Shown piece by piece: positions 52,880 to 56,585 of a stretch of 64,000 bases of DNA. The first letter of the stretch is position 1. Each line of letters begins with the position of its first letter. A program made the translations under genes and the position numbers. The notes under the pieces were generated by a model. The model had not been told where the DNA came from. It saw only the letters and a program-made list of their open reading frames with translations, and searched no databases. The stretch is from Escherichia phage vB_EcoM-172859UKE1, in the sequence record MZ234025.1. One strand, given 5' to 3'.

Positions 52880-53368
52880 ATGAATATATTTGAAATGCTT
52901 CGTAATGACGAAGGTCTTAGACTGACTTTATACAAAGACACTGAAGGCTTTTGGACGATTGGCATAGGCCATTTAGTAACAAAGAACCCGTCTTTAGCCG
53001 TAGCTAAAGCTGAACTTGACAGAATGATCGGTCGTAAATGCAACGGTACAATTACCCTTGATGAGGCTGAAAAGCTATTTAATGAAGACGTTGATAAAGC
53101 CGTTCGCGGAATCTTGGGTAATGCTAAACTTAAACCGGTATACGATTCTTTAGATGCGGTTCGTCGATGTGCATTGGTCAATATGGTCTTCCAAATGGGT
53201 GTAGCAGGCGTCGCCGGTTTTACTAATTCTCTTCGTATGCTTCAACAGAAACGTTGGGACGAAGCGGCAGTAAATCTAGCCCAATCTAAATGGTATCGTC
53301 AGACACCTAATCGCGCGAAACGCGTAATCTCAACATTTAAAACAGGAACTTGGAAAGCGTATATATGA
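52880..53368 (+). CDS. e: Lysozyme (endolysin) e
   Basis: 162 aa from ATG 52880; matches recalled T4 lysozyme ([20 protein letters not shown]...TGTW). Confidence 0.95.
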
Positions 53369-53646
53369 AAACATATAGTGAATTTTTATCAGAATCTATT
53401 CTTAGCGAAGCTACTGACACATTTGCAACTAAGCTAGGTGCAGCTTTGGTTGAAGCTGAAAGTCTATTAGCACGTATTTCTGAACTTGCTAGTAAGATAG
53501 ATACTCGCAAATTTGAGCGCACTAGTGATATCGTTAAGCTTGAAGCATTGTTGCGCATGTGCGATAAACCGGAAGAAATCGCTAAGAACGGCTCTCTAAT
53601 GAAACAACGTCTTGAAAAATATATTTCAGGCGCTTCAGAAAAATAG
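53365..53646 (+). CDS. Internal-protein-like protein with CTS (93 aa)
   Basis: N-terminus [10 protein letters not shown]; located between e and denV where T4 has ipIII/ipII. Confidence 0.6.
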
Positions 53647-53647
53647 T

Positions 53648-53677
53648 GTTTACTTCCTCCAAGAGTTTTGATACTAT
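53648..53677 (+). promoter_or_regulatory. Early promoter with inverted repeat whose right arm contains the SD
   Basis: GTTTAC at 53648-53653, 18-nt spacer, TACTAT at 53672-53677; arms TTCCTCCAAG/CTTGGAGGAA. Confidence 0.6.
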
Positions 53678-53704
53678 ACATTCATCAACTACTTGGAGGA
53701 AATT

Positions 53705-54118
53705 ATGACCCGTATCAATTTAACACTTGTTTCTGAACTGGCCGACCAACATCTTATGGCTGAGTATCGTGAATTACCTCGTGTATTCGGTGCAGTCCGT
53801 AAACATGTCCAAAACGGTAAACGTGTAAAAGATTTTAAAATCTCTCCAACATTTATCTTAGGCACAGGTCACGTAACATTCTTTTACGACAAACTCGAAT
53901 TTTTACGTTTACGACAAATCGAGCTAATCGCTGAATGTTTGAAACGTGGTTTCAAAATCAAGGACACGACAGTCCAGGATATTTCCGACATCCCTGCCGA
54001 ATTTCGTAATAATTATGTCCCGTCCGAAGCGTCCATTGCGATAAGTCAAGCACGCTTAGATGAAAAAATTGCTCAACGTCCGACTTGGTACAAATACTAT
54101 GGTAAATCAATTTACTAA
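53705..54118 (+). CDS. denV: Endonuclease V (pyrimidine dimer DNA glycosylase) DenV
   Basis: 137 aa from ATG 53705; matches recalled T4 endonuclease V ([34 protein letters not shown]...). Confidence 0.95.
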
Positions 54119-54124
54119 GGAAAA

Positions 54125-54241
54125 ATGAAAATGTATCAAGAATTTATCATTGAAGCAGATGCCAAAGGTCCTAAAGTAGATGTTGACGATATTGGATACG
54201 ATTTTAACAACTTCGGAATTATTTCTGGCGGTAAAGCTTAA
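54125..54241 (+). CDS. Mini internal-protein-like peptide with CTS (38 aa)
   Basis: MKMYQEFIIEADAKG...; AAGGAAAA SD; below the ORF-track cutoff. Confidence 0.4.
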   Translation: MKMYQEFIIEADAKGPKVDVDDIGYDFNNFGIISGGKA

Positions 54242-54244
54242 ATT

Positions 54245-54274
54245 GTTTACGCTTAAGTATTAATATGGTATAAT
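54245..54274 (+). promoter_or_regulatory. Early promoter (near-consensus)
   Basis: GTTTAC at 54245-54250, 18-nt spacer, TGgTATAAT at 54266-54274. Confidence 0.65.
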
Positions 54275-54304
54275 TACTCTATCAAAACAAACAAGGAAAC
54301 AAAA

Positions 54305-54619
54305 ATGAAAACGTATAAAGAATTTATTGCAGAATCCGCCAACCAACGCGTTGAAGGCGGTTATATTTGGATTGAACAAGTTGAACCACCGAGCCGCACT
54401 TCTACAGGTAAATGGAAAATTACTGTTGATGGTCCTGGTGGTAAACGTAGGACCCTTAAAGAAATTAATGGGTACTATGAAGAAGCTCTTTCGGATGCAG
54501 GAACTTACATGATGCAAATCATGATTAAAAACCCTGAAAACCGTTTTGCAGCTAAAGTCTTCCGTCGCATCGGTAATAAACTTTATGATGCATACTCTAA
54601 AAACTTCCCTAAAGAATAA
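54305..54619 (+). CDS. Internal-protein-like protein with CTS (104 aa)
   Basis: N-terminus MKTYKEFIAE. Confidence 0.6.
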   Translation: MKTYKEFIAESANQRVEGGYIWIEQVEPPSRTSTGKWKITVDGPGGKRRTLKEINGYYEEALSDAGTYMMQIMIKNPENRFAAKVFRRIGNKLYDAYSKNFPKE

Positions 54620-54644
54620 CATAAATTAAAACAATAGGAACAAA

Positions 54645-54974
54645 ATGAAAACGTATCAAGAGTTTATCACTGAAGTTACATTATCTGCGGAACAGAAAGC
54701 TGCTATCGAAGAAGGTAAAAATCCCAAAGTAACATATAAAGTAAATAGTAAAGGCGTTTTTGATGGTTTGGTTCAAGACCCTGAATTGAAAAAAGCTCTT
54801 TCTAAAACTAATGCGTACTTTGCTCCTAAATTTAACACAGCCGGTGTACTTATTGGATTGGATGTATTCAACTCTAAAGGTGTTCTATCTAGTGCCTTTG
54901 GTTATGCCGCTAACAAAATTACCAAAGCTGCATGGGAATCCAATACCAAACAAGCTCAAAAGCCTAGAGTATAA
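54645..54974 (+). CDS. Internal-protein-like protein with CTS (109 aa)
   Basis: N-terminus MKTYQEFITE. Confidence 0.6.
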   Translation: MKTYQEFITEVTLSAEQKAAIEEGKNPKVTYKVNSKGVFDGLVQDPELKKALSKTNAYFAPKFNTAGVLIGLDVFNSKGVLSSAFGYAANKITKAAWESNTKQAQKPRV

Positions 54975-55081
54975 TTCTTGCCTAATAAAGGGAAACGCAA
55001 CCTCTCCTCATGAACGTCGAGTCCTCTGAGTGATGTACCTTTTCCAACCTGTAATAAGGTCGAGCCCAAGTGCGGTAATGG

Positions 55082-55111
55082 GTTTACATAGCGAGTCGAA
55101 GGACCTAACAT
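55082..55111 (+). promoter_or_regulatory. Putative early promoter
   Basis: GTTTAC at 55082-55087, 18-nt spacer, TAACAT. Confidence 0.4.
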
Positions 55112-55147
55112 GTGCCACGGAATGGCCCCAACCTTAAGAGAAACTAA

Positions 55148-55687
55148 ATGAGAACATTTTTAACCGGACCTTATCTATCCCTGATGAATGCTTTTACACA
55201 CCATTCTGATGCTAGAGTAGAAGAAATTTGTAAGAACGGTTATGCCCCACCGTTTGAAGACGTACTCAAGCAGTACTGTACACTTCGTTTAGACGGCGGC
55301 AGACAATCCGGTAAATCAATTGCTGTGACTAATTTTGCTGCTAATTGGTTGTATGATGGCGGAACAGTTATTGTTCTTTCTAATACTTCAGCTTACGCTA
55401 AAATTTCTGCCGGCAACATTGAAAAAGAATTTTCTCGATATTCTAGCGATGATATTCGATTCCGTTTATTTACTGATTCTGTCCGTAGTTTTATTGGTAA
55501 TGAAGGACATAAATTCCGTGGATTAACGCTTTCTCGTATTCTGTACATAATTGACGAGCCTATTAAAGCTCCTGATATGGATAAGATTTACGACATCCAT
55601 ATTAAAACAGTCCAACACTGTTGCAAAAGCAAATATTGCATCGGCGGTAATGCTCGTCCTCAATTTTTTGTGATTGGAATGCAATGA
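55148..55687 (+). CDS. P-loop NTPase of unknown function (179 aa)
   Basis: Walker A GGRQSGKS and Walker B-like ILYIIDEP. Confidence 0.6.
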   Translation: MRTFLTGPYLSLMNAFTHHSDARVEEICKNGYAPPFEDVLKQYCTLRLDGGRQSGKSIAVTNFAANWLYDGGTVIVLSNTSAYAKISAGNIEKEFSRYSSDDIRFRLFTDSVRSFIGNEGHKFRGLTLSRILYIIDEPIKAPDMDKIYDIHIKTVQHCCKSKYCIGGNARPQFFVIGMQ

Positions 55688-55992
55688 TGACAACTATTGA
55701 AGTTTTTGAGTATTGTTATAACAGCCCAGTATGCAATAAAAGGGCTCTTGTAGAAAATTATGAGATTTACCATTTTAAACCTAAACGATATCGTTTGACT
55801 AAAGGTCCGTTCGCAGGGCAGCAGGTTCTTTGTACTGCTCCTAATGCACGGTTGATGACTAGTATTCCGCATTTCAAAATGGAATTTATTGATGGGCCAT
55901 TTAAGGGATTAATAACTCAAAGTTTAATGGCGTTTAATTCCGATCCATTTTTGATTAAAGAAAAATCTTGGATAAATTTATTTTCTAATTGA
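55684..55992 (+). CDS. Hypothetical protein (102 aa)
   Basis: ATGA overlap with upstream ORF. Confidence 0.5.
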   Translation: MMTTIEVFEYCYNSPVCNKRALVENYEIYHFKPKRYRLTKGPFAGQQVLCTAPNARLMTSIPHFKMEFIDGPFKGLITQSLMAFNSDPFLIKEKSWINLFSN

Positions 55993-55998
55993 GGTTAT

Positions 55999-56361
55999 AT
56001 GAAAGCATATCAAATTCTTGAAGGTGAACATAAAGGCACTATTTATTTTGAAGACGGTACTCAAGCCCGGATTATTGTCTCTAAGACTTTTAAAGAAGAC
56101 GCTATTGTAGATCCAGAAATTTTCTACGGTTTGAATGCTCGTGAAATTGAAATTGAACATCAACCTAAAGTTAAAATTGAAGGTGGTCAACACCTGAACG
56201 TTAACGTTCTGCGTCGCGAAACTCTGGAAGATGCAGTTAAGCATCCGGAAAAATATCCGCAGCTGACCATCCGTGTATCCGGTTATGCAGTTCGCTTTAA
56301 CTCTCTGACTCCGGAACAGCAGCGCGACGTTATCGCTCGTACCTTTACCGAGAGTCTATAA
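55999..56361 (+). CDS. Autonomous glycyl radical cofactor GrcA/YfiD-like protein
   Basis: 120 aa; C-terminal ~60 residues ([60 protein letters not shown]) match recalled E. coli GrcA; host-like codon usage there. Confidence 0.85.
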
Positions 56362-56585
56362 TGGCTAAATTGATTATAGAAGGGTCTGAAGATGTTTTAA
56401 AATGTTTTGCCGCCTGGTTTAGTTGCTCAGGCGAGCAATCATTCATTGAAGCATTTAGAATTGGTGATATTACTGGAAACTATCCGACAACTGATATCAC
56501 TGTACGTGGATATGGTATTAATGAGCCTATCCAATTGGTCGAATATGACCTTGCCACAGATGAGGAAATTCCTTATGTCGATTGA
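56361..56585 (+). CDS. Hypothetical protein (74 aa)
   Basis: TAATG overlap with upstream ORF. Confidence 0.5.
   Translation: MAKLIIEGSEDVLKCFAAWFSCSGEQSFIEAFRIGDITGNYPTTDITVRGYGINEPIQLVEYDLATDEEIPYVD

Follow-up and report, generated by a model that had tools for sequence, protein, structure and literature searches.

vs.6 of Escherichia phage vB_EcoM-172859UKE1, an old phage gene whose 3′ half was very likely overwritten by host grcA DNA

Introduction

How does a gene of an AT-rich lytic phage come to end in DNA that reads like that of its host, and what would the encoded protein do in the infected cell? These questions are raised by an open reading frame (ORF) in a 64,000-nucleotide stretch (hereafter the window) of the genome of Escherichia phage vB_EcoM-172859UKE1 (MZ234025.1). 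A sequence-only reading of the window had taken this ORF for a host-like autonomous glycyl radical cofactor (GrcA/YfiD) gene of atypical composition, either chimeric or recently acquired, with a product serving as spare part for oxygen-damaged glycyl-radical enzymes such as pyruvate formate-lyase (PFL) or the anaerobic ribonucleotide reductase.

The corresponding gene of T4-like phages, vs.6, is among the few ORFs conserved in all T4-like genomes compared in an early study (PMC1524935). Its T4 product, Y06I, and YfiD of E. coli are the only validated spare-part proteins to date (PMC8683613). According to this source, which cites work of the Knappe group (Wagner et al., 2001), both proteins are activated by the PFL activase (PFL-AE) and restore O2-cleaved PFL; Y06I receives its radical from the activase, forms complexes with the cleaved enzyme and restores catalysis. 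The gene and its biochemical role are already known at the level of T4 textbooks, and no new function is added here. A mention of DNA-level identity between vs.6 and host grcA was not found in the searchable literature, an earlier mention being possible, for example in Wagner et al. (2001) or the 2003 T4 genome review. The host-tracking mosaic structure described below is a modestly new evolutionary detail.

Results

Identity and surroundings of the ORF

The ORF is vs.6 of the T4 family (Table 1). Its DNA is 99.4% identical to that of phage ATK47 and 98.1% identical to RB69 vs.6, the records of both annotating the gene as vs.6 or "autonomous glycyl radical cofactor GrcA", and a megablast search with vs.6 matched 789 phage records. 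As in RB69, ATK47 and T4, the gene is flanked by vs.7 and vs.5 within the denV-regB region, and the whole order e, denV, vs.8, vs.7, vs.6, vs.5, vs.4, regB, vs.1, vs, tk is shared with these phages, which identifies the source of the window as an RB69-like Mosigvirus.

Table 1. Positions of vs.6, its parts and its neighbors in the window.
Feature	Position	Strand	Remarks
vs.8 and vs.7, upstream, same tightly packed cluster	55148..55992	+	phrog_1488, phrog_2049
GAGG, Shine-Dalgarno-like	55991..55994	+	4 nt 5′ of the vs.6 ATG; from sequence
vs.6 CDS	55999..56361	+	120 aa plus stop, ATG start; T4 Y06I orthologue
N-terminal part, phage lineage, codons 1-59	55999..56176	+	AT-rich; GrcA-like only distantly
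Core block, probably host-derived, glycyl radical domain	56177..56348	+	172/172 nt identical to E. coli K-12 grcA
Gly95 codon in RVSGYAV, predicted radical site	56281..56283	+	computed position; alignment to PDB 6owr, 1h16
3′ tail, phage-specific	56349..56361	+	4 synonymous differences from grcA; stop overlaps vs.5 start (TAATG)
vs.5, downstream	56361..56585	+	phrog_1986; start overlaps vs.6 stop

Over all 120 residues the protein aligns to the phage profile phrog_1209 (positions 1-121 of the profile; E 5.9e-63). It shares with GrcA/YfiD (TIGR04365, IPR011140) the architecture of a small, stand-alone protein with a C-terminal Gly_radical domain (PF01228 on residues 59-101; E 2e-18; 67.3 bits, cut-off 22.2) and carries the PFL-type radical motif RVSGYAV. 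The GrcA structure 6owr was matched at E 2e-42 and the C-terminus of PFL was matched too; in the alignment to 6owr (GrcA) and 1h16 (PFL), Gly95 of Vs.6 is equivalent to GrcA Gly102 and PflB Gly734. Because its N-terminus is divergent, Vs.6 scores below the equivalog cut-off of TIGR04365 (159.1 bits against 170, with an alignment spanning residues 18-120; E. coli GrcA reaches 234). RefSeq phage records label the protein GrcA although the score for this NCBIfam equivalog is below the cut-off. The most fitting label for the protein is phage Vs.6 (phrog_1209): a partial homologue and functional analogue of GrcA in which the C-terminal module is, to the letter, that of the host protein.

T4 Vs.6 has the same length of 120 amino acids, the same neighborhood (vs.8-vs.7-vs.6-vs.5-vs.4) and an E. 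coli-type 3′ block, and 112 of 120 residues are identical (93%). Seven of the eight amino-acid differences fall in the N-terminal part. In the core block, T4 differs by one nonsynonymous change (R73H) and a T at 56217, where the window has the K-12 allele. E. coli GrcA (YfiD; PDB 6owr; TIGR04365) is likewise a small stand-alone protein with the RVSGYAV motif, and its residues 68-127 are identical to residues 61-120 of Vs.6 at all 60 positions. In contrast, the N-terminal 59 residues of Vs.6 are only 27% identical to the E. coli protein, Vs.6 is seven residues shorter and its gene belongs to a phage cluster. The C-terminal glycyl radical domains of PflB and TdcE are homologous modules (Vs.6 residues 57-120 correspond to PflB 696-759). 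Nevertheless, Vs.6 stands alone and is not part of an 85-kDa enzyme, and its DNA is only about 79% identical to pflB as against 100% to grcA, so that pflB or tdcE was rejected both as identity of the fragment and as donor.

Around vs.6, no promoters, terminators, tRNAs or Rfam families were found above background. The ORF-free segment 5′ of vs.8 (54975-55147) has a raised GC content (0.44-0.49) and a weak promoter-like site at 55083-55111, and was without tRNA or Rfam match. Further upstream, at 53350-54974, four small ORFs have near-identical N-termini: 11 residues from an internal ATG in the ORF at 53350, MKMYQEFIIEA (54125), MKTYKEFIAES (54305) and MKTYQEFITEV (54645). By sequence, this common start resembles the leader by which T4 internal proteins are targeted to the capsid; in the RB69 record, two ORFs of the corresponding region, flanking denV, are annotated as "internal head protein".

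A host-identical block within a phage gene

vs.6 consists of parts with different affinities. The N-terminal part has a GC content of 0.33 and a GC3 of 0.18, and its nucleotide identity is 88% to T4 and 75% to Klebsiella phage JD18, as against 46% to the corresponding part of E. coli grcA (16 of 59 amino acids). In the core block, GC3 rises to 0.45 and GC to 0.50, which ranks at the 99.7th percentile among all windows of 172 nt across the 64 kb; all five leucine codons are CTG and all three proline codons CCG, codons with window-wide shares of 9% and 16%, respectively. The alignment of the block to E. coli K-12 grcA is free of mismatches, synonymous differences included (0 of 42 sites), and identity collapses upstream of it. 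In the last 12 nt of the gene, the four synonymous differences from grcA appear. The block was matched in every one of the 5,426 complete E. coli genomes, at 99% or more in 3,686 of them, and it was the sole megablast match to E. coli when the window was run against these genomes as three overlapping pieces.

Much of what had been read from the letters is borne out by these results: the match of the C-terminal ~60 residues to E. coli GrcA was quoted exactly, the DNA encoding them is indeed richer in GC and in host-like codons, and the N-terminal half is phage-like. The compositional switch, put at about 56190, is real but falls at 56177, with a return to phage-specific sequence in the last 12 nt. 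Of the two terms chosen for the gene, "chimeric" is apt, whereas recent acquisition of the gene as a whole does not hold, the N-terminal part being an old phage-lineage homologue of the GrcA N-terminus. The idea would have been undermined by an identity to host grcA no higher than that to phage homologues and by a uniform GC content. Over the last 183 nt, identity was 97.3% to host grcA, 96.7% to T4 vs.6 and about 84% to more distant phage homologues, and GC was uneven across vs.6, so that the idea withstood this check.

Age of the block and direction of transfer

Synonymous divergence (dS) of the phage blocks from E. coli is 0.07-0.09, in the range of another Escherichia species (0.068); for the same block, Citrobacter is at 0.42 and Salmonella at 1.06. 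Phage RB16, which has the same 61 residues as E. coli and served as control for protein-level constraint, shows a dS of 1.8. Given this value and the bacterial dS of 0.42-1.06, protein constraint is no explanation for identity at the DNA level. Between this phage and T4, the proportion of synonymous differences (pS) pooled over 11 flanking genes is 0.61, as opposed to 1 of 42 synonymous sites in the block (binomial P 4e-16). By these counts, the block is far younger than the split of the two phage genera to which this phage and T4 belong.

For bacteria, dS from E. coli in the N-terminal part is 0.068 (Escherichia sp.), 0.50 (Citrobacter) and 0.91 (Salmonella), so that divergence of the C-terminal part parallels that of the N-terminal part, as is expected under vertical descent. 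In coliphage blocks, 12 of the 16 distinct substitutions are GC>AT, so that the host state is decaying and phage composition is being approached. Both Tequatrovirus and Mosigvirus, the latter including the window, have an E. coli-type block, and when the 162-nt core was compared, five of 13 coliphage blocks equaled extant Escherichia alleles. Within a genus (window and FP43; T4 and PD112), the block is no less diverged than the N-terminal part. Conversion is therefore infrequent, and the data do not demonstrate that it is ongoing.

Between T4 and this phage, vs.6 as a whole is less diverged than its neighbors, with a pS of 0.34 for the N-terminal part against 0.61 (P 4e-4). Together with vs.8 (pS 0.45), this part lies below the other flanking genes (pS 0.54-0.76), which hints at a more recent phage-to-phage exchange of a small region. 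Position 56217 (C/T) is the one polymorphism common to phages and E. coli alleles. As evidence for repeated capture it was downgraded, since a Klebsiella phage varies there too and recurrent mutation may be responsible.

A mirror case in Klebsiella phages and a survey of other lineages

Jiaodaviruses of Klebsiella (JD18, KPV15, PSE-D1, M12a) carry the same gene. For JD18, KPV15 and PSE-D1, gene length and phage-specific last codons also agree with the window. The N-terminal part is about 75% identical to that of the window at the nucleotide level, the 5′ junction of the core is the same as in coliphages, and the last ~15 nt are phage-specific. The core itself differs: it is 96-97% identical to grcA of the K. 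pneumoniae complex (reference loci L180-L183) and 86-89% to that of E. coli, and encodes LLDAVEH, the GrcA signature of Klebsiella, Salmonella and Raoultella, in place of the LEDAVKH of E. coli and its phages. Twenty core sites separate the E. coli and Klebsiella genes; of these, coliphages agree with E. coli at 18-20 and Jiaodaviruses with Klebsiella at 16-18. Bootstrap support, counted on unrooted bipartitions, was 95% for Escherichia plus coliphages and 86.5% for the K. pneumoniae complex plus Jiaodavirus; a rooted neighbor-joining tree had given a misleading 35% for the former group.

Searches gave a reciprocal picture. With E. coli grcA as query, 632 phage records matched at 95-99%, Klebsiella phages among the matches listed being at 86-89%. 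With K. pneumoniae-complex grcA, 108 Klebsiella-phage records matched at 95-99% over nt 202-369, coliphages among the matches listed being at 84-88%. These results therefore call for at least two separate host-to-phage replacements of the glycyl-radical module. A Pro-to-Ser change in JD18 (SLTSEQQ), common to one Klebsiella protein, was considered as a captured allele and downgraded, the host variant being rare (four contigs).

A third phage-host pair was not found with Citrobacter amalonaticus grcA, for which the top phage match (92.3%) was an E. coli-type block. Likewise, a comparison of 79 IMG/VR homologues and named phages with more than 80 bacterial grcA genes yielded no close host match in T5-like, Karamvirus, Pseudotevenvirus (RB16), Slopekvirus, Nanhuvirus and Erwinia jumbo lineages; best matches were 73-86%, so these lineages hold no recent host copy.

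In uncultivated phage contigs of about 150 kb from IMG/VR (L117-L122, L129), a GrcA-like gene shows the Pasteurellaceae-type signature NPDKYP...ITRTFTESL, and for most of them the best DNA match is Haemophilus parainfluenzae grcA (78-83%), which suggests that phages of Pasteurellaceae have such a gene as well. Further IMG/VR contigs classed as viral (L168-L177) encode PflB-type C-termini (MNREMLLDAMENPEKY...QSM) and so contain pflB itself, not a gene for a spare part; a bacterial origin is probable, through either prophages or mis-binning of contigs.

Discussion

Origin of the mosaic

We favor the reading that the ORF is vs.6, the autonomous glycyl radical cofactor gene of the T4 family, and that this old phage gene had its 3′ half overwritten by host grcA DNA (probability roughly 0.85). 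The most likely route would be homologous recombination, in the form of gene conversion, between vs.6 and fragments of host grcA during infection. The 5′ limit of the converted tract would be set by the end of homology and the 3′ limit would lie at the last few codons. The latter may have been kept unconverted because of their position in the region where ribosomes would bind for the overlapping start of vs.5: GAGAG in the 3′ tail of the window is a possible ribosome-binding site for vs.5, and the same region reads AGAGG in JD18. This explanation of the kept codons is tentative, because T4 has only GAAAG.

Several other accounts of the near-identity have to be considered. If grcA had been captured whole and long ago, with a drifting N-terminal half and a C-terminal half held by constraint on the protein, no recent transfer would be needed, and the 60 C-terminal residues are indeed near-invariant in GrcA of Enterobacterales and Pasteurellaceae. 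Synonymous sites, however, are not protected by such a constraint, and the block of the window has none that differs from E. coli, while RB16, encoding the same residues, and the bacterial genera have diverged widely there; moreover, Klebsiella phages have the Klebsiella version. An old capture thus appears very unlikely. Near-identity alone does not give a direction either, and E. coli and Klebsiella might have received the block from their phages. Transfer towards the host is nevertheless highly improbable: codon usage and GC3 of the block are those of the host, its bacterial divergence runs parallel to that of the neighboring N-terminal part, and the changes private to phages are GC>AT and lead away from the host state. 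The exact K-12 identity, taken by itself, might also result from host reads mis-assembled into a phage genome. Some 630 independent phage records, the T4 and RB69 references included, contain the block in frame and with the same junction, which leaves almost no room for such an artefact.

How often the host DNA was taken up is harder to decide. A single capture from E. coli may have been followed by spread between Tequatrovirus and Mosigvirus through phage-phage recombination in co-infections, and the low divergence of the vs.6 N-terminal part relative to its neighbors as well as the similar rates at which block and N-terminal part diverge within genera speak for it. The coliphage data are fitted by this course of events about as well as by repeated captures. 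On the other hand, no substitution in the block is common to all members of either genus, five of 13 coliphage blocks equal extant Escherichia alleles, and neighboring sites in the last 12 nt occur in all four combinations, which suggests several events or recurrent mutation. In addition, the Klebsiella-type block still needs a second, independent capture. We regard a single coliphage capture as a serious contender, though one we lean against. That the glycyl-radical module is a recombination target, repeatedly re-copied from the infected host by lytic T4-like phages that degrade host DNA, has in our view an even chance of being correct.

Role of Vs.6 during infection

On the preferred reading, the function of the protein follows that of its orthologue. 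As in its orthologue T4 Y06I, the radical, on Gly95 in Vs.6, would be placed by the host activase PflA. When O2 cleaves host PFL at its radical glycine, the 60-residue C-terminal module of Vs.6 would then replace the lost glycyl-radical domain and bring activity back. For Vs.6 of this phage the same action is inferred, because its module is identical to that of host GrcA. T4-like phages stop host gene expression after infection. With the host shut off, no new GrcA would be made, and the phage copy might keep PFL working in a microaerobic infection. PFL yields acetyl-CoA, ATP via acetate, and formate, the last of which is the reductant of the class III ribonucleotide reductase encoded by T4-like phages.

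Of the targets proposed in the sequence-only reading, the spare-part assignment itself and PFL are backed by the literature on the T4 orthologue; repair of the anaerobic ribonucleotide reductase finds no support there or in the present data. A role of Vs.6 in serving the phage's own reductase, NrdD, in place of host PFL is conceivable. A function in nucleotide metabolism was proposed from a Pfam match alone (PMC1524935), and in an Erwinia jumbo phage an NrdG-like activase is encoded two genes downstream of the homologue. Nonetheless, the module shows full identity to GrcA and is nearest to the C-terminus of PFL, and the sole biochemical evidence cited in the literature consulted, including PMC8683613, concerns PFL. 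Service to NrdD is accordingly improbable. In the Erwinia phage, pEa_SNUABM_50 (L091; a 357-kb jumbo phage), the vs.6 homologue is at 495-857 and the gene annotated as anaerobic ribonucleotide reductase activating protein starts at 1308.

Implications

grcA has been chosen as qPCR marker gene for Straboviridae (2026; PMC12845203). Primers in the 3′ half of phage vs.6 could pick up bacterial DNA as well, given the 95-100% identity of this half to grcA of E. coli.

A 172-nt host-identical stretch in an old gene of an AT-rich lytic phage, together with the mirror case in Klebsiella phages, points to recent uptake of host sequence by homologous exchange in T4-like phages. The vs.6 mosaic may serve as a simple natural marker for how often such uptake occurs. 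If the module is indeed re-copied time and again, it would track the GrcA/PflA/PflB system of the host, and vs.6 would be a natural reporter of gene conversion from host to virulent phage.
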